Source: Promethearchaeota archaeon (GTDB lineage: Archaea > Asgardarchaeota > Lokiarchaeia > Sigyniarchaeales > SOKP01). Taken from it: a DNA stretch of 50,108 nt. The notes beneath the pieces are model-generated. The model saw only the letters and a list, made by a program, of their open reading frames with translations, searched no databases and had not been told where the DNA came from. The stretch is from positions 1 to 50,108 of the forward strand of contig JAEOTA010000010.1 in assembly GCA_016840085.1 (NCBI GenBank). Reading direction: 5' to 3'. Positions within the stretch are counted from its first letter, which is position 1. The number at the start of each line of letters is the position of its first letter. A program made the translations under genes and the position numbers. This document shows, piece after piece, positions 9,285 to 21,139 of the stretch.

Positions 9285-11522
9285 TTAGTAGTCGAGAGGA
9301 TTGATTGGCATATACAGAAAATCTTTTAATATATTAAACGTATTAATTAAATAAGCTGGTTTATTCGTATCGTTTTTTCTCTTAATCTCACAATATTCTT
9401 CGGAAGATAAGGGATAAGGAAATATACATTTTAGGCAAGTTTCATTTTTAATACATTTATTGCACTTTCTTCTTTCTACCTTTTCTTTTTTTAAACGCTG
9501 TAGATTTCGTATAATATCCGAAAATGATATTCCAACCTTTCCTATTGGATCTGAATGCCAACAAATTCGAATAGAATCATCATCCCCTATAATAGCAGTT
9601 TCTAATTTTTGACAATTTGCATGATCCTTCGTCCATCTACATAGATTTTGAAATTGAGGTAGTAATCTACGTTCTAAAAGGTAATTGAAACTATCTTCAC
9701 TTTTTGAAATCTCATTTAGGAGATTATAGATTGCCCTTGTGTCAATTGTAGTATGATCTGAGCAAATAAGGTTTTCCATGCTAGTATTGCCTTCCTTATA
9801 ATCTTCCAAAGCTGAAGCTGCGTTTTGTAATTTAATATATAATCCAGTTTGTTCACCTAATAAATGCGTTCTCCCTGGTTTTAAGATATATGCTTTGTTT
9901 GAATTTTCCCAATAATATGATTCATAATACATAGTCGGTGAAAATTCATTATAAAGGGTTGCTTCATTTTCTTTATGGAATTTCATATATTTTAGTTTGT
10001 TTGAATATATATGAATAATTGTTCCATTTATCGCAAGATTTTCTTGTATCCATTTTACTAATGTTGGTTTTATAAAGTCAGAATTAATTATTATATTATC
10101 AAAAAAAAATTTCATATTTTCCCGTTTAAGATTGAATGATAAAATTTTGAGGATATTATAATCAATAACTTTGCTATTAGTTTCTGTTGCAGATTTTGGA
10201 GCAAATTTTACTTTGTATACATCAAACGGAAAGTTATTATTTAATAGTATTGTATTTTTTTGACCTATTGGTTCAATTTTATAACCATAGCTCTTATAAT
10301 TTCGATATAGCGGCGTACCTTTATAAATATGAAGATAATTATGTGCATAAAAATCAATATCTAATTTTTTTACCAATTCTATAGTTTTTTGCGCGTCCTC
10401 AATAGTTTCGCCTGGTAATCCAATCATAATACTTACAAATACTGGATACATTCCAATCTTTTTCGCATATGATGTCATATTTTTTAATTTTTCAATAAAT
10501 TCCATCTCCTTTACAAATTTTTCTGAAGGCATACTTTTTGGAGGGTTTACTTTGCCTATCGCTCTTAAAACTCTTGGGACAGCGCTTTCTAAAGAAAATC
10601 CTATTGAAGCAAAACCTGCTTCCCTCATTAGATCTAATAATTCTTCAGTAATTTTGTCACATCGCGTAATACAAGATAAAGGAACCTTAATATTATTTTC
10701 AATAATACGCTCACAAATTAGTTTCGCTCTTGATGGTATTATTGTGAAACCATCATCGTTAATAGGAACAGGGCTTTTGAACTTATTATATTCATTCAAA
10801 AATGATAATTCTTCTATTACTCTTTCTATTGAGTGAAGAAAAATATTTCTTTTGCTTATTATTGCACAATTACAATAAACACAGTTTTGATTACACCCTC
10901 TTGCAGTAATTATCCCTGTAGGAAAAGTTTCAGATACAGGAATGACTTTTGAAAGATAAGGAGATGGATAATTATCTAAATAATTTTTAATTAATCGGTT
11001 TGAAAGTAGAATATTACTATCTGGATTTGTGATAATCTTATCTTCATTTCTAAAAGTAATACCTTTTATATTATCTAGATTAGCTTGAATTAAATTAAAA
11101 CTATTTTCAGATAGCGTCGTTAATAATTTAAGCATTGTTTCTTCTCCCTCCCATCTAACACAAAGATCTATACTGCTGGTACTCTCCAAAATTTCTTTAG
11201 ATTGCACGCTAGGGGTAGGACCTCCAAAAACAATTATAATTTTTGAATTATATGCTTTTAATCCCTTGCTAATCAATACACATTGCATATAATTTTTTTC
11301 ATAAACTGTAAATCCAACTATTTTAGGATTATAATATGCTATTTTCTTAACACATTCTTTAACATTAAAAGACTCTTTTGAGATAAATTGCTCAGCACGA
11401 AAACCTTTTTTTCTTAAGTATGCGATTACATAGGCTGAACCCAAATTATGGTTATAACTAGATAAATTTAAAACCCCCCCAGATGGAAAAATCATCAATA
11501 TGTCTAAAAATTTCTTATTCAA
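9285..11522 (-). CDS. Cobalamin-binding radical SAM enzyme with C-terminal SPASM-like Cys cluster
   Basis: N-terminal B12-binding region (HNLGSAYVIAYL, VFGGPTPS, EGEET); TARGCNQNCVYC CxxxCxxC motif; GLPGET; C-terminal CNKCIKNETCLKC (Cx2Cx5Cx2C) plus further Cys. Confidence 0.85.
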   Translation of the reverse strand: MNKKFLDILMIFPSGGVLNLSSYNHNLGSAYVIAYLRKKGFRAEQFISKESFNVKECVKKIAYYNPKIVGFTVYEKNYMQCVLISKGLKAYNSKIIIVFGGPTPSVQSKEILESTSSIDLCVRWEGEETMLKLLTTLSENSFNLIQANLDNIKGITFRNEDKIITNPDSNILLSNRLIKNYLDNYPSPYLSKVIPVSETFPTGIITARGCNQNCVYCNCAIISKRNIFLHSIERVIEELSFLNEYNKFKSPVPINDDGFTIIPSRAKLICERIIENNIKVPLSCITRCDKITEELLDLMREAGFASIGFSLESAVPRVLRAIGKVNPPKSMPSEKFVKEMEFIEKLKNMTSYAKKIGMYPVFVSIMIGLPGETIEDAQKTIELVKKLDIDFYAHNYLHIYKGTPLYRNYKSYGYKIEPIGQKNTILLNNNFPFDVYKVKFAPKSATETNSKVIDYNILKILSFNLKRENMKFFFDNIIINSDFIKPTLVKWIQENLAINGTIIHIYSNKLKYMKFHKENEATLYNEFSPTMYYESYYWENSNKAYILKPGRTHLLGEQTGLYIKLQNAASALEDYKEGNTSMENLICSDHTTIDTRAIYNLLNEISKSEDSFNYLLERRLLPQFQNLCRWTKDHANCQKLETAIIGDDDSIRICWHSDPIGKVGISFSDIIRNLQRLKKEKVERRKCNKCIKNETCLKCIFPYPLSSEEYCEIKRKNDTNKPAYLINTFNILKDFLYMPINPLDY

Positions 11523-11663
11523 GTGTATTCACCTTACCATCAACACAAACAAAATTTTTCAAAAAAATATTTCCCTATATTTCTTCGAATTCTAAAAAAC
11601 ACCAGTCTAAAAAAAAAATATTAAAAAAAATAAAACCTCTAATTTATTGACCTAGTCAAATCC

Positions 11664-11891
11664 TTAACCAACTATAACAAATGACATCATGTTATTAATC
11701 ATGGTCTTTTTTTCCGTACTAGAAAGGCTGGGATCAAGAGAATCTTTTATGCGTTTCCTTATTTGACCATGGCTTTCATTATTAGCTAATCCTTGGTTTA
11801 CCGTATCAATTATATTCTGGCCAAGAACAGTACCAAATTTTTGAAGGATATTATCCTTTGTATTATTAGATATTTCAGACATTTTTCTCAT
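11664..11891 (-). CDS. Small protein, candidate precursor peptide for the adjacent radical SAM enzyme
   Basis: 72-75 aa ORF directly upstream of and co-directional with the rSAM gene; helical-looking body with hydrophobic tail MMSFVIVG. Confidence 0.6.
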   Translation of the reverse strand: MRKMSEISNNTKDNILQKFGTVLGQNIIDTVNQGLANNESHGQIRKRIKDSLDPSLSSTEKKTMINNMMSFVIVG

Positions 11892-12107
11892 CTCATAATT
11901 TTTCGAATTTCGCTTTATTTATTGTTTATCTAAATATCATGGATAATTGTTTTTCTACATTTATAAAATATTTTATTTTTTTAGCATTTTTTTTAATGAA
12001 AATTTTTTTCATTTTTCTAAATAATTTACTATCTTTTAGTGATTTTGATAAAAATTATTTTTTTAATGTCGAAATTCAGTAAATATCAAAGGTATTAATC
12101 TGTAACC

Positions 12108-12665
12108 TTATAACTCTGCAGATAATACCTTATTTTTTTGATATAGATCATTAATAATTGCATTAAAAGCTTCAATAACTCCCTGTCCTGTTTTTGCTGA
12201 AGTTATGTAATAACCGAGAAAATTTCGGTTTTTAATAACTTCTTGAATTTTAGAATGATCTATGTTATTTTCATCCGCTAAATCAATTTTATTAGCAAAT
12301 ACAATGGTAGGAATATTTCCACAATAATGATTTACATCTTGATGCCAATCTGATATATGGTTAAAACTTTCTTCTCCAAGTTTATTTTCTTCTAAGCTAT
12401 ATACAATTATAGCTGCCTTACTGCTTTTAAAAAAGGATGGACGTAAAAAGTGAAATGTATTTTGGCCAGCTATATCCCAAAATAATAATCTAATTTGATC
12501 TCCTTCAATTTCTTTGTCAAAAACAGAAAATTGTGCGCCAATAGTTTTAATATAATCCTTTATGAAAGAACCTTTTGTAAAGTTTTTAATTAAGGTTGTC
12601 TTACCTACTCTTCCATCACCGACAACAGCTATCTTAAAACTGAATTTGCGTCCTCTTTCATTCAT
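12108..12665 (-). CDS. Rab/Ras-like small GTPase (cassette 1)
   Basis: G1 GDGRVGKT, G2 TIG, G3 WDIAGQ, G4 NKID, G5 TSAK. No C-terminal Cys prenylation motif. Confidence 0.95.
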   Translation of the reverse strand: MNERGRKFSFKIAVVGDGRVGKTTLIKNFTKGSFIKDYIKTIGAQFSVFDKEIEGDQIRLLFWDIAGQNTFHFLRPSFFKSSKAAIIVYSLEENKLGEESFNHISDWHQDVNHYCGNIPTIVFANKIDLADENNIDHSKIQEVIKNRNFLGYYITSAKTGQGVIEAFNAIINDLYQKNKVLSAEL

Positions 12666-12867
12666 TTTTTTTTCGCAGAAATCGGGTAATAATTAATTCT
12701 TATTAAAAAGTTTTAACTAGAGTAAGATCAGTTATTAATTAATATAAAATTTTGGTTTAAAAATCACCTCAAAATGAAATTTCTTCGCTATTAAGCAAAT
12801 TTTTAGAATGTTCCATACATCATGTATGAAAATAAAAAAAATTCGGTTTATTTTGATCAATAATTTT

Positions 12868-12912
12868 TATAAAGAAAAAAAAGAAGGAGGGAGTCATTAA
12901 AGGACCCCCTCC
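12868..12912 (-). terminator. GC-rich hairpin plus U-tract ending the small-peptide operon
   Basis: Minus strand GGAGGGGGTC-CTTTAAT-GACTCCCTCC: 10-bp stem with one G-U pair (12886-12912), followed by TTCTTTTTTTTCTTT. Confidence 0.65.
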
Positions 12913-12989
12913 CCCTAGCCTTACTACTCCCTGATCTGATTACTCAACTTTTCAGATGAATAAAATCAGCTTGATGAGAATAAATTATT

Positions 12990-13271
12990 TTAGAGAAGCC
13001 CGTAATTCCTGTAATGTATATTTCTTTTAAGATTTTCAATATTAAACACTTCTTCTAAATATTTAGCGTTATATCTAGCTTTCTTTAATAATTTTGATAA
13101 AGCTCTTTTAATAGGTTTTTCCTCTGCCTTAACTTTCACTACTTCGAATTCCCCCTCAATTGGAGGGAGCTCTTCTAAAATAATTATTTCTTCAATTTTG
13201 AATGGTTCCTCAAGAGCTTTTTTCTTGACCATAACTTCAACCATTTTGTTAATCAACCCCTTTTTTTTCAA
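12990..13271 (-). CDS. Small hypothetical protein 'C' of cassette 1 (true start may be the ATG of MVEVMVKKKA)
   Basis: Charged Glu/Lys-rich ORF in tandem with the 13275 ORF. Its NAKYLEE segment resembles NPRYFEE of the A peptides. Confidence 0.6.
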   Translation of the reverse strand: MKKKGLINKMVEVMVKKKALEEPFKIEEIIILEELPPIEGEFEVVKVKAEEKPIKRALSKLLKKARYNAKYLEEVFNIENLKRNIHYRNYGLL

Positions 13272-13274
13272 ATT

Positions 13275-13478
13275 TTATTTTAAATCTTTTAGACCGAATC
13301 TAAACTTTTCAGGATTCAACAAATAATAATCATAAGATTGTTTCCATCTTTTTTCGACTCTCTTCTTTTCAATCAAATCTGTTCCGCTTTCGGTGACGAG
13401 GGGTGTTTTAATCAATATCTTAGGCCATTGCCTAATTTCTCTTATAAAATCTACATCCAAATATTCATTTAAATCCAA
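13275..13478 (-). CDS. Small peptide 'B1' of cassette 1
   Basis: C-terminus YYLLNPEKFRFGLKDLK aligns with DYLLHPKKYNFGWKDL of 17052..17144. RBS-like GAGGTGGTGA lies upstream near 13509-13518; the start could be an in-frame CTG near 13504. Confidence 0.72.
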   Translation of the reverse strand: MDLNEYLDVDFIREIRQWPKILIKTPLVTESGTDLIEKKRVEKRWKQSYDYYLLNPEKFRFGLKDLK

Positions 13479-13552
13479 TTTGATTACATCTTTACTTTCT
13501 GTCAGAAATCACCACCTCTTTATTTTTTATTTAAAAATTAATGTGATTCTTT

Positions 13553-13807
13553 TTAGTAATACCCAAAAAGGTTAAAGTTAGAACTATGAATGATATCCGA
13601 TGATTCTATTTTGAGTTTTGCATCTTTTAGTGTAATCTGGTTTTCAAAGTATCTTGGGTTTATATTCTTGTAAATTTCATATAGCTCATATTGTTTTTTT
13701 ACTTCAATGTCTTTTTCCTTGGTTTTGGAAACTTTTTTCAATAAAACTATAAATAATTCTTCAAGTTCTACAAGAGTATCCTTTTTTTTTATTAGAACTT
13801 GTCCCAT
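13553..13807 (-). CDS. Small peptide 'A1' of cassette 1
   Basis: AAGAGGG upstream of ATG. C-terminal NPRYFENQITLKDAKLKIESSDIIHSSNFNLFGYY aligns without gaps to the 14034 ORF. Confidence 0.78.
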   Translation of the reverse strand: MGQVLIKKKDTLVELEELFIVLLKKVSKTKEKDIEVKKQYELYEIYKNINPRYFENQITLKDAKLKIESSDIIHSSNFNLFGYY

Positions 13808-13847
13808 TTTTTTCCCTCTTTTATATTTATTCTTGAATATAGTAAGA

Positions 13848-13909
13848 TCAGGGTTCGATATATAGTTTTACATGCAGAACTTCGCTTGGACTTTTAGATT
13901 TGTTTTAGA
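13848..13909 (-). promoter_or_regulatory. Conserved promoter/operator, copy 1 (TATA plus AGTT-N10-AACT)
   Basis: 62-bp block aligns ungapped to 14287-14348 (46/62 identical by hand count). ATATATAG at 13858-13865; AGTT-ttacatgcag-AACT at 13864-13881. Confidence 0.7.
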
Positions 13910-14033
13910 GTCCAATTTTCTAATACTATTGAAAAATACTATCTTACTTGCAAATTTTATAATTTATTAAAGTTTCATGATTTACAACTTATTTTAGATT
14001 TTAGAAATAGAGTAAAAAAAAATTTTAAAATGT

Positions 14034-14261
14034 TTAAATACCATTAAAGAAGTTGAATTTAGAACTCAAAATAATATCTGAAGTAAAATTTCTTTCTTTT
14101 GCTCCATTAAGATGTTCAATTTCTTCAAAATATCTTGGATTCAAATCTCCAAGTACTTCATCCTCTTCATTTTCTATAGGAGTATGAACTTCATCTTCTT
14201 CAACTTCAGGGATTTTCATAACCGTTAAATTTTCATAAGCTTGGGTCATTTTTCTCATCAC
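14034..14261 (-). CDS. Small peptide 'A2' of cassette 1
   Basis: Acidic body with internal repeat EEDEV twice. C-terminal NPRYFEEIEHLNGAKERNFTSDIILSSKFNFFNGI is paralogous to A1. Divergent from the regulator. Confidence 0.78.
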   Translation of the reverse strand: MMRKMTQAYENLTVMKIPEVEEDEVHTPIENEEDEVLGDLNPRYFEEIEHLNGAKERNFTSDIILSSKFNFFNGI

Positions 14262-14286
14262 TTTTTTTTTGTTAAATTAAATTAGG

Positions 14287-14348
14287 TCAGGGTTTAATAT
14301 ATAGTTTAATATCCAAAACTCTAATTGGAGTCCCGAATTTGTTTTAGA
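14287..14348 (-). promoter_or_regulatory. Conserved promoter/operator, copy 2, in the divergent intergenic region
   Basis: ATATATAG at 14297-14304; AGTT-taatatccaa-AACT at 14303-14320. A TATAAATA at 14357-14364 could serve the + strand regulator. Confidence 0.7.
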
Positions 14349-14395
14349 TCGAAAAGTATAAATAAACCCTACAATATAATAATTATAGAGTTTTC

Positions 14396-16306
14396 GTGAC
14401 TCCATGCAATTTTCCCCCTAAGGAAATTTTAGATCCTATCATTGGAAGACCAAATTATGAATATATTATTCTTTGGATCTTGAATAATAATGAAGTATGC
14501 TCTTGGTCAGATTTAAAAGAAAAAGTGAATCGATCAACTTTATCAATATATTTGAATAGACTTAAACGCGATGGCTATATAGTAAAGAGTGAATTTAATA
14601 AGTATCGTGTTACACCTAAAGGAAGAAATAGATTTTACGATTTAAGTCAAGCTAAGCAAAAAGGAAGAAAATTAAGTTATCCTCCGCAGGTAATATTAAA
14701 CCAAAGAAACTATGATCATTGGGTTCTGTGGATGTTGTACAATAATAACTACTGTAAATGGGCAGATTTTCTCGAAGAACCTCTTAAAATAAATCAATCT
14801 TCATTATCGAAGAATTTAAATAATTTAATCGAGAATAAATTTGTAAGAAAGGAAGATAAAGAGTATAGAATTACCCAAACCGGGAAATTGGAATACTCTA
14901 AAATGTTAAGCCATTATGATTTAGATAGACAATCAATATTAGAAGAAGAAAGTAAACGGATTGCAGAGTTGACTCAAAAAACACTCAAGTTTTTTGAATA
15001 TTATGAAATTAGTGATAGAGGCATTCAATTTAGATTTCTTAATAGTGTATTGAGACTAGATTATGAACAAATTAAAAGTGTATTAAGAAATGAGGTGGAT
15101 TTTCATAAAATATTGCTTTTTCTCTCAATGAATCACCCAAATGAATTTCCGAATTATATTTCTCTTAAGGATTTTTCAGAAAAGTATGAAATTAAAAAAA
15201 CTACTCTTGAATACTATACTGATGAGATAGTCGAAAATCAAATTTATCCAATAAAATTTTTTAAATTGGAGGTTCCTCCTAATAAATATTACTATTTTCA
15301 ATCAGGTGAAAAAATAGAAATGATGCTACGAGTTATTGCAGAGGAGCACATAACAAAGTTTACCTACTTGAATAAACTTTTTGAAAATTCATCAAAATTA
15401 ATTCTACCTCTTGATATGAATTCTACAGTAAATGCTATTTTGGAAGAAGCATGCCAAAATATTTTCAAAGAGGATTTAAAAAGCTCATTAAGGAAATTTT
15501 TGCCTGAATATATTAATTATTTAGCCTATAAAATCGAGAAAAAGAGGAGATTAATAGGTATTGCCGATAAGCTAGAAGGAATTATTTGGCAGAATATTCC
15601 TGAAATGTTTAAATCAATAAATAAAGATGAATTAGAAGCTCAATATGATGAAAAAATTGAAGAAATCAATAAAGCGATTGAATTGAATCCAGACAAACTT
15701 GATTTATATTATTCAAAAATTAAGATTTTGATATATTTTAACCAATATGAGGAGGTAATTGAATTGATAGATAAAATGCTAAATCAATTTACTGATGAGG
15801 AAAGGGATCTTAAAATTAAAAGAGCATATATTCTTAAAGAAATGAGAAATATAGAAGCGGGATTGGAGATCATCAATGAATTAATTGATAAATATCCGAA
15901 AGATAATAATCTTCTTCTCAATAAAACATATTGGTTACAATATTTAGATAAAAAAGAAGAAGCCTTAGAATTAATTTTAAATTTGATAGAAAGTGAACCC
16001 GAAAATGGACTTTATTATGACACTTATGGTGAAATTCTAATGAATTTTGCTGAATATGACAACGCTATAAAACAGTTCCAGAAAGCAATAAAGATTAGCA
16101 GTAATACATGGTATAGTTACCAAACATATATTAAATTAGGAATTTGTTATAAAGAACTTGAAAATTATGAATTAGCTATTAAATATCTCCAGAAAGGGAA
16201 AGAATTTACAAATAAGGCTTTAATTGATATTAATACCAAAAAGGAATGGTTAGCAATTACAGAATTATTCCTAGCAGAAATAGAACAACTTCAAGCTGAG
16301 TTTTAA
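14396..16306 (+). CDS. Multi-winged-helix plus C-terminal TPR putative transcriptional regulator (cassette 1)
   Basis: Two tandem MarR/ArsR-like wHTH repeats (IILWILNNN...STLSIYLNRLKRDGYI...YRVTPKG; VLWMLYNNN...SSLSKNLNNLIENKFV...YRITQTG), a probable third wHTH (ISLKDFSEKYEIKKTTLEYY), then TPRs (YYDTYGEILMNFAEYDNAIKQFQKAI; YIKLGICYKELENYELAIKYLQKG). Confidence 0.8.
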   Translation: MTPCNFPPKEILDPIIGRPNYEYIILWILNNNEVCSWSDLKEKVNRSTLSIYLNRLKRDGYIVKSEFNKYRVTPKGRNRFYDLSQAKQKGRKLSYPPQVILNQRNYDHWVLWMLYNNNYCKWADFLEEPLKINQSSLSKNLNNLIENKFVRKEDKEYRITQTGKLEYSKMLSHYDLDRQSILEEESKRIAELTQKTLKFFEYYEISDRGIQFRFLNSVLRLDYEQIKSVLRNEVDFHKILLFLSMNHPNEFPNYISLKDFSEKYEIKKTTLEYYTDEIVENQIYPIKFFKLEVPPNKYYYFQSGEKIEMMLRVIAEEHITKFTYLNKLFENSSKLILPLDMNSTVNAILEEACQNIFKEDLKSSLRKFLPEYINYLAYKIEKKRRLIGIADKLEGIIWQNIPEMFKSINKDELEAQYDEKIEEINKAIELNPDKLDLYYSKIKILIYFNQYEEVIELIDKMLNQFTDEERDLKIKRAYILKEMRNIEAGLEIINELIDKYPKDNNLLLNKTYWLQYLDKKEEALELILNLIESEPENGLYYDTYGEILMNFAEYDNAIKQFQKAIKISSNTWYSYQTYIKLGICYKELENYELAIKYLQKGKEFTNKALIDINTKKEWLAITELFLAEIEQLQAEF

Positions 16307-16350
16307 GTAGTATTTTAAAAGCTTCGAAGATTTGATTCTTATCAAAAGAT

Positions 16351-16905
16351 TTATGATGCTGAAGCTAATTCTTTATACTTCTTATATAATTTATTGATAA
16401 TAGCGTTAAAAGCGTCATACACTCCTTGACCCGTTTTTGCAGATGTTAGATAATAACCAAGAAAATTTTGGTTATTTACTACTTTTTGAATCTTGATATC
16501 ATCTAAATTACTTTCATCAACTAAATCAACTTTATTAGCAAATAATATAATTGGAATATCTTCACAATGTTGCTGTACTTCATTATTCCAATGTTCTATA
16601 TTTTCAAAACTTCTTTTTCCAAACTCATTCTCTTCTAAACTATACACAATGATTGCAGCTCTACTCTCATTGTAAAAAGAGGGGCGTAGAAAATGAAATT
16701 CATCTTGACCTGCAATATCCCAAAAGATTAATCTAATGTGATCTCCCTCAATTTCCTTATCAAATTCAGAAAATTGCGCACCAATAGACCTCACATAATT
16801 TTTTTCAAAAGACCCTTTCGTAAATTTTTTAATCAAGGAGGTCTTTCCTACCCTTCCATCTCCTATAACCGTAATCTTAAAACCAAATTTCTGAGGACCC
16901 GCCAT
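16351..16905 (-). CDS. Rab/Ras-like small GTPase (cassette 2)
   Basis: GDGRVGKT, SIG, WDIAGQ, NKVD, TSAK. Close paralog of 12108..12665, sharing the YSLEEN..G..SF insert. Confidence 0.95.
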   Translation of the reverse strand: MAGPQKFGFKITVIGDGRVGKTSLIKKFTKGSFEKNYVRSIGAQFSEFDKEIEGDHIRLIFWDIAGQDEFHFLRPSFYNESRAAIIVYSLEENEFGKRSFENIEHWNNEVQQHCEDIPIILFANKVDLVDESNLDDIKIQKVVNNQNFLGYYLTSAKTGQGVYDAFNAIINKLYKKYKELASAS

Positions 16906-17051
16906 CGAAATATTTTATAGAAACTGATTATAAATTTTTGATTAATGTAAGATTAGATATTTTTTAATATAAAATTTTAGTTCTATAGTGAAAAATTATA
17001 ACAAAAGAACAAGAAAACAAAAATAAAATAGAAAAAAAAAAAGATAATTAA

Positions 17052-17144
17052 TTATAGGTCTTTCCATCCAAAGTTGTATTTTTTTGGATGTAAAAGATAA
17101 TCCACTAGGGTTGCATCCATTCCCTTAGCTTTCTTTTTTGACAT
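17052..17144 (-). CDS. 30-aa peptide 'B2' MSKKKAKGMDATLVDYLLHPKKYNFGWKDL
   Basis: Hand-translated, below the ORF-track cutoff. GGAGG RBS at 17154-17158. C-terminal half matches B1. Confidence 0.72.
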   Translation of the reverse strand: MSKKKAKGMDATLVDYLLHPKKYNFGWKDL

Positions 17145-17185
17145 TTTTAATTTCCTCCATAAAGTTTTTTAAAATAAAAAAAAAA

Positions 17186-17269
17186 TTATTTGGTGATGCC
17201 ATCAAAAATAGGATGGCAAATTATATCATTCCTAACCTTGATAATTCCTTCCTTAGCTTTTTTTCTCAT
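17186..17269 (-). CDS. 27-aa peptide 'A3' MRKKAKEGIIKVRNDIICHPIFDGITK
   Basis: Hand-translated. GAGGTC RBS at 17276-17281, downstream of the conserved TATA/palindrome. NDII...FDGI echoes SDII...FNGI of A2. Confidence 0.62.
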   Translation of the reverse strand: MRKKAKEGIIKVRNDIICHPIFDGITK

Positions 17270-17316
17270 TTTTTTGACCTCTTATTTTTACTTAATTTTA
17301 ATATGGGTTTGATTAC

Positions 17317-17353
17317 ATATATAGTTCAGGATGCTGAACTTTTCACGAAGTTC
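17317..17353 (-). promoter_or_regulatory. Conserved promoter/operator, copy 3
   Basis: ATATATAG at 17317-17324 overlaps the perfect inverted repeat AGTTCAG-gatg-CTGAACT (17323-17340). A second inverted repeat GAACTT-N6-AAGTTC spans 17336-17353. Confidence 0.7.
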
Positions 17354-17435
17354 GAAATAAAAAGAAAGCACACATAATTTAAATAGCATAAAAAACTATC
17401 TATAACTAACGATTATAAATTTTAATGTATAACTT

Positions 17436-19340
17436 ATGAGTACTATACAATACCCTCCTGAAGAGATTTATAAGACTCCTATATTAGGCAAGAAAAATTT
17501 TGAACATATTATTCTCTGGATGTTATATAATAATGAAGAATGCGAATGGGCTTGTTTTTCTCAAAAACCTCTTGAACTACGGTTATCTACTTTATCAAAA
17601 TACTTATCACTGCTAAAGGGAAAGCAATATGTTGAAAAACTTTCAAGAGGGCATTATAAAATTACGTCAGAAGGTAAAAAGAGATTTCTTGAATTATCTA
17701 AAGACGTAGGAAAGAAAAGAAAATTAAGTTATCCGCCAGATATAATTAAAAAGAAAAGAAACTATGATCATTGGATACTGTGGATGGTGTATAATAATAA
17801 TTATTGCAAGTGGGCAGACTTTCTAGCCGAACCTCTTTCTATTAATCAATCATCCTTATCAAAGAATATGAATTTATTATTGGATTTAGGATATATAGAA
17901 AAAGAGAATAAAGAATATAGAATTACTCAATTAGGCAAGTTAGAGTATTCTAGAATATTACAAGATTATGATTTAGATAGACAATCAATCTTGGATGAAG
18001 AAAGTAAACGAATTGAAGAGATAACTAAAAAAACAATCAATTTTTTTGATAAATACGGTATTGAGGATGAAAATATACAATTTAGATATCTTCACAATGT
18101 TTTAAGGTTAGATTATACAAGAGTAGAATCAATGCTTTCAAATGAGGAGGATTTTAATAAAATTTTACTCTATATCTCAATAAATCATCCAGATCAATAT
18201 CCGGATTATATATCCACAGAAGAATTTTCGAGCAAATATCGGATTAAACAATCTAAACTTGAATATTATATTGATGAAATTGTTGAAAATAACATATATC
18301 CAATTAAATTTTTTAAATTAGTGGTTTCTTCCGACGAAAAATATTATTTACAAGAAGATGAAAAATTAGAAAAAATACTTAGAGCGATTACAGAAGGTCA
18401 TATTACCAAATTTACCTATTTAGATAAATTATTCTCAAGATCTATGAATAGACGTGCTATTGTAAGAGAAATTTTAGAAGAAATTTGCGAAGTATTATTC
18501 AATAATGATTTAGAAAAAACTTTAAGAGAATTTTTACCAGACTATATTAATTACTTAGCATATAAGGTTGAAGCTAAAATAGAATTTAAAGAAAGTCTCG
18601 ATAAGCTTGAAGGAATAATTTGGCAAGATATGATAGAGATATTTCAATCGAATGAATCTAAAGATTTCGAACAACAATATGAGGAAGAACTTGAAGAGAT
18701 TAATAAACAAATAGAATCAAATCCAAAAAACCTCGACCTATATTATTCTAAAATTAGGATTTTAGTTTATTTTGATCAATTTGATGAAGTGTTAGAATTA
18801 TTAGATGAGATACTCGAAATGTTCCCTGCTAATGAAAAAGATATTAAGATGCAAAAAGCATCTGTTCTTAGGAGAATGCAAAAAATAGAAGCTGGACTAG
18901 AAATAATTAATAATTTACTGCTAAAATTTCCTGAAGATTATGATCTTCTTAATTATAAGGCTTACTGGTTCTATTATTTAAATGAAAAAGAAGGTGCAAT
19001 AAAACTAATTAAGGAGATCATAGAGCATGAACCAAATAATGCGACTTACCATGATACCTATGGAGAAATCTCTATGTTTTTTAAAGATTATGATAAAGCT
19101 ATAAAAGAATTCCAAAAAACGTTAGATTTAGCAACTGATGATTGGTATTTAAACCAGACTTATATTAAGTTAGGAATATGTTATAAAGAATTAGAAAATT
19201 ATGAAGCTGCACTTGAAAATCTTCAGAAAGGAAAAGATCTCACAAATAAATCTTCAATTGATCCCGAAACCAAAAAAAAGTGGCTTTCAATTGCAGAACT
19301 TTTCATTGCAGAGATTTCTCAATTAGGGGTTGAGTTTTAG
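17436..19340 (+). CDS. Multi-winged-helix plus TPR putative regulator (cassette 2)
   Basis: Full-length paralog of 14396..16306, sharing RNYDHW.LWM.YNNNYCKWADFL, YDLDRQSIL.EESKRI and QTYIKLGICYKELENYE. Confidence 0.8.
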   Translation: MSTIQYPPEEIYKTPILGKKNFEHIILWMLYNNEECEWACFSQKPLELRLSTLSKYLSLLKGKQYVEKLSRGHYKITSEGKKRFLELSKDVGKKRKLSYPPDIIKKKRNYDHWILWMVYNNNYCKWADFLAEPLSINQSSLSKNMNLLLDLGYIEKENKEYRITQLGKLEYSRILQDYDLDRQSILDEESKRIEEITKKTINFFDKYGIEDENIQFRYLHNVLRLDYTRVESMLSNEEDFNKILLYISINHPDQYPDYISTEEFSSKYRIKQSKLEYYIDEIVENNIYPIKFFKLVVSSDEKYYLQEDEKLEKILRAITEGHITKFTYLDKLFSRSMNRRAIVREILEEICEVLFNNDLEKTLREFLPDYINYLAYKVEAKIEFKESLDKLEGIIWQDMIEIFQSNESKDFEQQYEEELEEINKQIESNPKNLDLYYSKIRILVYFDQFDEVLELLDEILEMFPANEKDIKMQKASVLRRMQKIEAGLEIINNLLLKFPEDYDLLNYKAYWFYYLNEKEGAIKLIKEIIEHEPNNATYHDTYGEISMFFKDYDKAIKEFQKTLDLATDDWYLNQTYIKLGICYKELENYEAALENLQKGKDLTNKSSIDPETKKKWLSIAELFIAEISQLGVEF

Positions 19341-19348
19341 ACGTAAAT

Positions 19349-21139
19349 TCAGTTCTTTTCTACTAATTTTTCTAATTCATCTATCTTATCCGAGAGATAT
19401 TTAATCCCTTTTTGCCAGAAAGAAGAATCATTCAGGTTAATACCTATTTCAGATAACATTTCTTCAGGAGAAAGTGAGCTTCCAATAGAAAGTAATTTGA
19501 GATACTTAGGAACGAATTTTTCTTTCTGCTCGAGATACATTTGATAGATTGAAATCACTAAAAGGTTAGACATGTTATAAGCATAGACATAGAAAGGCTC
19601 GTGTAGAAAATGTGGAACTACAAAACAATAACTAGCATAATCTTTTTCGATGTTGCTGATTGAATTTCCAAACATTAATTCCATTTCTTTAACAAAAGCT
19701 TTTTTGATTTCATCTGCTGTAGGGAGTTTTTTCTCAAGGATTTCATGAATTTTTCTTTCAAAGTGATAAAAAGCATTTTGTCTGTGAGAAGTAGCAAATT
19801 TAGATTCTATAAAAGAACATAATAGTGTAATTTTTTCTTCTTTTGAATCTACTGTCTCAAGAAGGAGATCTGTTACTAATAATTCATTGAATATAGATGC
19901 TATTTCAGCAACTACTAATGATATTTGTATATTTATAAAATTTTGATCCCTTTGAATATAAAAAGCATGAAAAGCATGGCCAAGTTCATGTGCTAACGCT
20001 CGAACCGAATCGATATTATATGTGAAATTAATAAAAACAAAGGGATAATGCTTTAATTTTCCATATTCGCAAAAAGCTCCCCTATTTTTCCCTTTCCGGG
20101 GAGTTACATCTATATGATTTAATTTATTCATATTTTCTACTATATTTTTGAATTCTGGGTGGAATTTTTCAGTAGCAGTTTTAATCAATTCTATTGTTTC
20201 CTGGTAGGAATATTCTCTTGTTATCTGACCAATGGGTGCGTAAATATCTGATATATGCAATTCTGGAAGATTCAAGATTTTTTTCTTTAAATTATAATAT
20301 CTCTCAACAATATTATTACTTTCTGTGGTAAAATTTCCAAGTACTTCAACGATTTCATCACTTACTTCATTTTGCAGATTTCTTCTAGATATTGGATGAA
20401 TAAAATTCTTTTTCTTATTTTCTAAATCCCAGTTTTTGAGGATATTAGTGAAAATGTGTGTGAAAATCATTTCATTGTTTTTGTATTCTGTTAACATTGT
20501 TTGTAAGGCTTTATAACGAAGATCTTTATCCTGCTGATACATAAAAGCAAAAAGTTCTGCTTCAGTTAATATTTTCTTTTTTCCATCTACTTCAAAATCA
20601 AATAAGAAACTGCTTTTTAATTCTCTATAAAGATTTAGGAATCCCTTAACACCAGTAATATCTTTCATTAAAATTAACTGTTCTTCTTTTTCAGAAAGCT
20701 GATGTTTCTTTTTCATTCTATTAAATTTTAGTGCATGAGAATAACGGTTTAGTTCAGGAGCTTTAATAAGTTCTTTAAATTTCTCATCTGAAATCATATT
20801 TAGCTCTAAATTAAAAAATAAGAGCTTTTCTTGAATTGCGACTTTAAAATCTTCTATTTTTGCATGAAAGGATTTTACACTCTCATCTAATGAATTAATA
20901 GAATATATTAATAGAGAATAAATGCTGAGGTAAAAGACTTTCTCAGAAATTTTTTCGTATTCTTGATACCATTTTATGAGTTGTTGAGGATGAAGTGAAG
21001 GATTCTCCAACTTTCCTTTGACCTTTTGATAAAATTCTTCTGAGGCATTTTTTATATCTTCAATATCCCTGTCAATTGAGGGATCATTGATATTCTTATA
21101 GAAATTGCTCAAATCCCATTTAATGAGATCTTCAACCAT
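19349..21139 (-). CDS. pepF: Oligoendopeptidase F (M3B family)
   Basis: WDLS N-terminus, IDVTPRKGKNRGAFC, zinc motif AHELGHAFH, AEIASIFNE, PHF...FYVYAY. Confidence 0.9.
   Translation of the reverse strand: MVEDLIKWDLSNFYKNINDPSIDRDIEDIKNASEEFYQKVKGKLENPSLHPQQLIKWYQEYEKISEKVFYLSIYSLLIYSINSLDESVKSFHAKIEDFKVAIQEKLLFFNLELNMISDEKFKELIKAPELNRYSHALKFNRMKKKHQLSEKEEQLILMKDITGVKGFLNLYRELKSSFLFDFEVDGKKKILTEAELFAFMYQQDKDLRYKALQTMLTEYKNNEMIFTHIFTNILKNWDLENKKKNFIHPISRRNLQNEVSDEIVEVLGNFTTESNNIVERYYNLKKKILNLPELHISDIYAPIGQITREYSYQETIELIKTATEKFHPEFKNIVENMNKLNHIDVTPRKGKNRGAFCEYGKLKHYPFVFINFTYNIDSVRALAHELGHAFHAFYIQRDQNFINIQISLVVAEIASIFNELLVTDLLLETVDSKEEKITLLCSFIESKFATSHRQNAFYHFERKIHEILEKKLPTADEIKKAFVKEMELMFGNSISNIEKDYASYCFVVPHFLHEPFYVYAYNMSNLLVISIYQMYLEQKEKFVPKYLKLLSIGSSLSPEEMLSEIGINLNDSSFWQKGIKYLSDKIDELEKLVEKN

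Follow-up and report, generated by a model that had tools for sequence, protein, structure and literature searches.

Locus organisation

The window (the whole 50,108-nucleotide stretch of DNA analysed here) comes from an archaeal genome of 29.5% GC whose gene content includes small GTPases and TPR-longin-like proteins, features that suggest a Loki-type Asgard archaeon. The micro-ORFs A3 and B2 sit on its minus strand between the GTPase gene G2 and the divergent regulator gene R2, with which they stand head-to-head (Table 1). A sequence-only reading of this DNA had proposed that both are unannotated genes with ribosome-binding sites, and their coordinates, ATG starts and Shine-Dalgarno (SD) sites are as it described. 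The basic starts (net charge +4 for A3 and +4 for B2) and the absence of a hydrophobic core (best 12-residue hydropathy 0.87 and 0.56, respectively) are likewise borne out, and nothing points to Sec export of either peptide. From the comparisons set out below, both micro-ORFs are judged to be real genes, and A and B to be two unrelated families of tiny proteins whose genes are probably switched on by the neighbouring DNA-binding protein R2.

Table 1. Features in and around the A3-B2 locus (positions in the window).
Feature	Position	Strand	Basis or remark
A3, short-A family basic peptide, 27 aa, ATG start	17186-17269	-	Basic start, IKxxN core, variable tail
A3 Shine-Dalgarno, GAGGTC	17276-17281	-	Sequence; kept in orthologues
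Oligo-T tract directly 3' of A3 stop	17176-17185	-	Sequence; usual 3' of short-A genes
B2, short-B family basic peptide, 30 aa, ATG start	17052-17144	-	Alignment, profile, dN/dS
B2 Shine-Dalgarno, GGAGG	17154-17158	-	Sequence, alignment
14-bp RNA hairpin within B2, covering the conserved motif	17059-17097	-	Recoding and covariation tests
Oligo-T tract 3' of B2, likely archaeal terminator	17032-17042	-	Sequence
op2 operator, inverted repeat AACTT-N5-AAGTT with TTCG flank, just upstream of BRE/TATA	17336-17356	-	
TATA box of the A3-B2 transcript (inferred promoter)	17316-17324	-	Same position in orthologues
R2, divergent regulator, 634 aa, three winged helices and about six TPRs	17436-19340	+	Pfam, AF2 model, tree
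G2, Ras/Rab-like GTPase, downstream of B2	16351-16905	-	Pfam Ras, E=1e-39
Oligopeptidase F (PepF, M3), convergent with R2	19349-21139	-	Pfam; recurs in related loci
B1, long-B paralogue, 76 aa, CTG start behind a strong SD	13275-13505	-	
R1, paralogous regulator, 57% identical to R2; other operator variant	14396-16306	+	Different clade

Several starts around B1 need revision. B1 had been read as 67 aa from a TTG and is corrected to 76 aa from the CTG at 13503-13505 (minus strand). Gene C (12990-13244, minus strand) probably starts at an ATG near 13244, giving 84 aa, and the distal long-A gene (14034-14243, minus strand) at 14243-14249, in neither case at the listed TTG or GTG; the other long A is at 13553-13807. 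C-type genes also face regulators in genera that have no B. Lying 3' of gene C is a GC-rich element that ends in a strong hairpin (12873-12960, minus strand), a candidate structured RNA without an Rfam family whose conservation extends to eight or more further loci (L031, L034, L041, L042, L108, L124, L138 and L145). A 75-aa ORF (11664-11891, minus strand) precedes a B12 radical-SAM gene (9285-11522, minus strand) and forms a candidate RiPP pair with it; comparable ORFs of 75-96 aa stand ahead of the radical-SAM enzyme in L033, L035 and L070.

B2 and the B family

The proposed alignment of B2 with B1 holds: 10 of the 15 C-terminal residues are identical (shuffle p=0.0005), and this is the sole such match among 2.3 million short-frame windows of the genome. 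B2 carries the C-terminal NPxK[FY]xFGxKDL motif of the B family and matches the family profile, which includes B2 itself, with E=2.5e-11. Short-word tblastn of the peptides against their own genome returned noise, and profiles were required. Matches to the B profile occur in 50 of the 53 genomes of the genus and 27 of the 42 genomes of a sister genus, counts that lack independence because these genomes are kin. From a library of 1.8 billion the profile picks out 53 small-protein representatives (28-104 aa). The loci examined contain 96 distinct B ORFs (24-94 aa), with the motif C-terminal in nearly all. In the closest relative, G099, the contig ends inside B2, leaving the A3 region outside it, and the 3' end of B2 is conserved.

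Frame disruption or a lack of codon-level conservation had been named as the outcome that would speak against these genes, and short B shows neither. None of 28 members has an in-frame stop. The in-frame dN/dS is 0.28, with 0.20 for the final 12 codons; the two shifted frames give 0.96 and 1.39 and contain stops in 24/28 and 16/28 members, respectively. The suggestion that the last ~15 residues are the functional unit was right in that the C-terminal part is what is conserved, but the core is some 19-20 residues rather than 15; the shortest member of the family has 24 aa. Part of the conservation of the motif at the DNA level is due to an RNA hairpin described below.

B2 had also been taken for a cut-down copy of the B1 of this genome. 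Short and long B instead form separate groups: in a weak tree of 28 columns, long B (55-94 aa) lies apart from short B (24-32 aa), with a few Trp-retaining short forms between them, and the 49-aa forms of a third genus cluster with the short type. By that split and the placing of the 49-aa forms, B2 is, as far as this weak tree can tell, an old separate subfamily rather than a trimmed B1.

The long-B genes differ in their start codon. CTG is kept in 12 of 13 B1-like genes and begins 24 of 40 long-B genes, behind a strong SD; the conservation of a codon other than AUG here suggests that translation is controlled. In one short-B gene the start codon is replaced by ACG (L042:3263-3265). Long B is interrupted by a stop codon or a frameshift in L031 (G024 cassette 1), L106 and L151, and these copies may be pseudogenes or assembly errors.

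In two genomes a 296-aa protein with an N-terminal Cys/His motif has the B motif as its tail (L121:4018-4908 and L122:3827-4717); its homologue in the genome studied here (contig C2) has an unrelated tail. The C-terminal placement of the motif and its transplant onto the tail of another protein are as expected of a portable terminal motif. Pfam returned nothing for A3, B2, B1 or the 296-aa fusion protein, and the ESM Atlas gave only unnamed clusters, under 0.9, for B1. The B2 model has a helix at residues 3-18, a short helix at 20-23 and an extended tail, at low confidence (pLDDT 68), and Foldseek with this 30-aa model found no match.

The short-B profile (B2 core 17073-17117, minus strand) matches residues 70-83 of rice cytochrome c (E=2e-4) and, more weakly, many other cytochromes c. 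Residues ~60-80 of cytochrome c resemble the B2 model in having a helix, Asn-Pro and a short basic helix, but B lacks the heme motif, the match covers 14 residues only and it is weaker with long B (E 0.3-0.6). We reject homology; the likeness is probably convergence on a helix-cap motif, or chance.

A3 and the short-A family

A weaker echo of the long-A proteins had been claimed for A3. It is at chance level (shuffle p=0.48 against 14034-14261 and p=0.06 against 13553-13807), and no short peptide reaches 5 bits with a profile built from 19 long-A proteins; neither the profile nor the shuffles found in A3 the NPRYFE core or the SKFNF-type C-terminus of long A. The FDGI end on which the comparison leaned varies even among close relatives of A3. 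Nor is A3 a reduced A1 or A2: it belongs to a separate family with a conserved middle and a variable tail. Its relatives, in an alignment of 37 members, are 20-30 aa long and share a basic start and a central IKxxN strand, with differing tails. Their dN/dS is 0.49 in the A3 subgroup and 0.22-0.37 in sister subgroups; A3 and its closest orthologue differ by six non-synonymous changes and one synonymous change, too few to be informative. The coding status of A3 is thus a little less secure than that of B2, but the constancy of its SD, its ATG and its spacing from the promoter speaks for a gene. In 13 loci a short-A gene has a short-B gene directly after it. Elsewhere in the genome (contig C68, minus strand, ~9,000 nt from the contig end) there is a further short-A-like micro-gene of 23 aa with an SD and a T tract, which stands behind a different upstream repeat.

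An RNA hairpin over the B motif

Compared with synonymous recodings of the same peptides, the short-B genes fold more stably than expected (mean z -1.84, p<0.05 in 14/28), as against 1/33 of the long-B genes. In the 14-bp stem 87% of cells are paired, seven pairs have changed on both sides and G-U pairs occur. Covariation lies above all 500 shuffles and above slid registers, a figure that relatedness inflates. The effect follows position in the transcript: mean z is -2.0 in short B, -1.1 in those long-B genes that precede a T tract and +0.1 in internal long B. The Pro codon shifts alongside from CCA (25/29) to CCT (24/32). Since internal long B keeps the peptide motif without the hairpin, the hairpin goes with the 3' end of the transcript, and the T fraction in the 25 nt after short-B stops averages 0.71. 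The best reading of the hairpin is a putative structure that stabilises or terminates the 3' end and overlaps the codons of a peptide motif.

It remains to ask whether the RNA could be the main product, with the peptide secondary or the transcript dual in function. The covarying stem speaks for this, as does one copy, L079, in which the Pro and Gly of the motif are lost and the pairing is kept; the internal long-B genes without the hairpin and the selection on the reading frame speak against it, and we consider it very improbable. Among short-A genes a hairpin occurs in some subgroups and not family-wide (mean z -0.9, 8/49). An Rfam search over 11400-17500 found nothing near a gathering score.

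Operator, promoter and dispersed regulon

The promoter and operator of A3-B2 are conserved: an inverted repeat lies ~10 bp upstream of a TATA box, which is 50-75 nt before the ATG in orthologues. The operator exists in two variants, one found with the R2 clade and one with R1-type genes. The first, op2, stands upstream of 22 of 24 R2-clade genes (labelled tree rows; support 99), most of which face a micro-peptide gene. Combined with a TATA box it turns up ~100 times across 48 genomes from two genera, whereas the reversed pattern does so three times; 17336-17356 is the only such site in this genome. The system as a whole is confined to a few genera of one family. A scan for bacterial promoters and terminators stayed at shuffle level, as expected for an archaeon.

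The gene that comes first is a micro-ORF of at most 35 aa at 60 of 94 operator sites, and at ~30 of 63 when sites are chosen by the operator alone; the background is 5 of 305 TATA-like sites in this genome. Twenty-six operator-led micro-ORFs have no adjacent regulator, and many copies that lie far from a regulator yet keep its operator point to a dispersed regulon. Other op2 targets are 64-aa, membrane and roughly 250-aa proteins. The ~250-aa family has a His-containing box like a histidine-kinase dimerisation helix (L202, L215, L218, L222 and L226), and op2 also precedes a family of 55-64 aa (L190, L204, L216 and L234).

Archaeal activators usually bind just upstream of BRE, the position that the operator occupies here. 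From this we infer activation rather than repression. R2 is the probable operator-binding protein, and A3-B2 a predicted transcript.

The regulators

The R2 model (AF2, pLDDT 85) has three winged helices, helical spacers and ~six TPRs, the last also matched by Pfam, and R1 and R2 fall in different clades of the regulator tree. The top 50 Foldseek matches to the whole R2 chain are generic TPRs (consensus TPR, Tom70, APC/C, OGT and MamA), with no RRNPP structure among them. Across 71 aligned regulators the TPR residues W511, K508, D540, E544, Q574, T575 and K578 are invariant, the pocket positions being taken from helix position and not from a complex. They are equally invariant in clades that face membrane or secreted proteins without peptides, which argues against one-receptor-one-pheromone specificity; one common ligand still fits.

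Regulators also occur in genera without a B match (4/5 genomes against 0/5 with B in g12, and 4/7 against 0/7 in g23), and there the genes opposite them encode C-type proteins and A-like peptides, or secreted proteins. Among close R2 orthologues the first peptide may belong to either family, A or B, with free exchange between the two. A complex prediction for R2 and B2, both given as alignments, scored 0.02 without controls and is evidence neither way. Close homologues of the GTPase are present in 129 of 135 genomes, a distribution that singles out no partner. Longer regulators (~840 and ~990 aa) in L083, L086, L089 and L090 face arrays that include CxxC zinc-ribbon micro-proteins of 31-46 aa, and in L161, from another genus, the regulator is divergent from a TBP-like gene ~860 nt upstream of it.

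Discussion

The reading that we favour, tentatively, is that A3 and B2 are cytoplasmic micro-proteins induced by R2, and that B docks on a conserved intracellular partner, most likely a TPR protein of the module. R2 would bind the operator upstream of BRE/TATA and turn on a short A3-B2 message ending in the hairpin and a U tract, and the peptides would be made in the cytoplasm and stay there. B2, a predicted mini-helix with a conserved C-terminal docking motif of ~20 residues, would bind one conserved intracellular protein, most likely one of the regulators themselves or of their TPR-longin neighbours; binding to such a TPR protein of the module would give feedback inside the cell. A3 would be a second, faster-changing peptide family of the same regulon. 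PepF may clear the peptides. We infer this role as well as the TPR partner; PepF may lie nearby simply through inherited gene order. Intracellular docking of B is favoured by the fixed C-terminal motif, its transplant onto the 296-aa protein, TPR residues that do not vary and peptides that lack a hydrophobic core. Purifying selection on short B, and the frequency of micro-ORFs behind op2 and opposite R2-clade genes, also count for the overall reading. TPR grooves are known binding sites for terminal peptides, and the invariant polar and aromatic residues would fit one conserved ligand. Against it stand the invariance of the same residues in regulator clades that face no peptides, the presence of regulators in B-less genera and the exchange of A for B among close R2 orthologues. 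An extended form of the model, which we regard as somewhat unlikely, is an archaeal peptide-sensing circuit unrelated to RRNPP, in which cytoplasmic micro-peptides from a dispersed regulon would act back on a winged-helix/TPR factor and couple it with Rab-like GTPases, their dose being set by the CUG of long B or by the AUG and stabilising 3' hairpin of short B.

The closest rival to docking, though itself unlikely, is that the peptides are pure outputs: R2 would sense something other than the peptides (a small molecule, or the nucleotide state of the GTPase), and the basic proteins (mean net charge +3 to +4) would act on unrelated machinery such as ribosomes, nucleic acid, acidic lipids or the GTPase. 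The regulator-less, operator-led micro-ORFs fit plain output genes equally well, the regulon also holds larger and membrane proteins, and the TPR residues stay the same whatever the peptide. This reading offers candidate targets with none singled out, however, and the pairing of micro-peptides with adjacent R2-clade genes is much more regular than a generic stress output would require. Quorum sensing of the RRNPP kind, with non-Sec export, trimming, re-import and sensing by a cognate regulator, would explain the divergent layout as in Rgg/SHP, the HTH with C-terminal TPRs, the adjacent PepF and the conserved front and variable tail of short A, the tails then being kin-specific signals. It is improbable given peptides without a hydrophobic signal helix, the fold matches to R2, TPR residues constant across peptide types and a B tail nearly constant across genomes. 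Translation of the short ORFs, mainly A3, might instead control read-through of the U tract into the next gene, whether B2, the GTPase or a TPR-longin gene: in 33 of 43 cases a short-A gene has a co-oriented gene or a short B behind it, nearly always past a U tract. But for 13 of 31 short-B genes what comes next is a new promoter, a convergent gene or nothing, regulatory amino-acid runs are absent and the peptide sequence itself is under selection, which makes leader peptides a distinctly improbable account. Least probable is a role for the peptides as RiPP precursors that the B12 radical-SAM enzyme would modify: this enzyme does show linkage to cassette-1-type loci, but it has its own adjacent 75-96-aa ORF, with which the peptides share no leader, and most short A/B loci have no radical SAM.

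Asgard archaea have many small GTPases, mostly without assigned partners. The locus offers a defined operator, a candidate regulator and synthesisable products of 24-30 residues, so that in vitro tests can be made without culturing, and the survey reveals that this lineage has hundreds of real genes too short for annotation cut-offs, as well as a non-AUG start that is conserved. A literature search returned no paper describing the module and none on peptide-receptor signalling or micro-protein regulons in Asgard archaea. What is new is that A3 and B2 receive different verdicts, that the hairpin is tied to position, that long B mostly starts at CTG and that the B motif has been fused to the tail of another protein, together with the extent of the dispersed regulon.

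Two groups of known systems bear comparison. SgrS/SgrT and RNAIII/delta-hemolysin are dual-function small RNAs with a peptide, and they resemble the predicted A3-B2 unit in being short regulator-induced transcripts with structured RNA and a conserved small ORF; the B2 hairpin differs in lying inside the ORF and following 3'-end position, and there is no Rfam match near the genes. Rgg/SHP and the other RRNPP cassettes of the Bacillota share with the module a DNA-binding N-terminus with C-terminal TPRs, a tiny, divergently transcribed peptide gene with a basic start adjoining the receptor gene, an oligopeptidase nearby and several paralogues per genome. RRNPP pro-peptides typically have an N-terminal hydrophobic signal helix (PMC7425212). 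In neither peptide family was a hydrophobic export signal found (mean best 12-residue hydropathy 0.09 for B and 0.30 for A, with a maximum of 1.4), nor did the receptor pocket vary with the cognate peptide across peptide types or peptide-less clades. By signal helix, fold kinship and pocket co-variation, the features tested, the module is not an RRNPP member. Instead of one XRE-type HTH, R2 has three winged helices and a helical spacer, with no RRNPP fold match in the top 50. Its peptides come from two unrelated families that can replace each other, many of the peptide genes lie at a distance from the receptor gene, and a small GTPase is linked.
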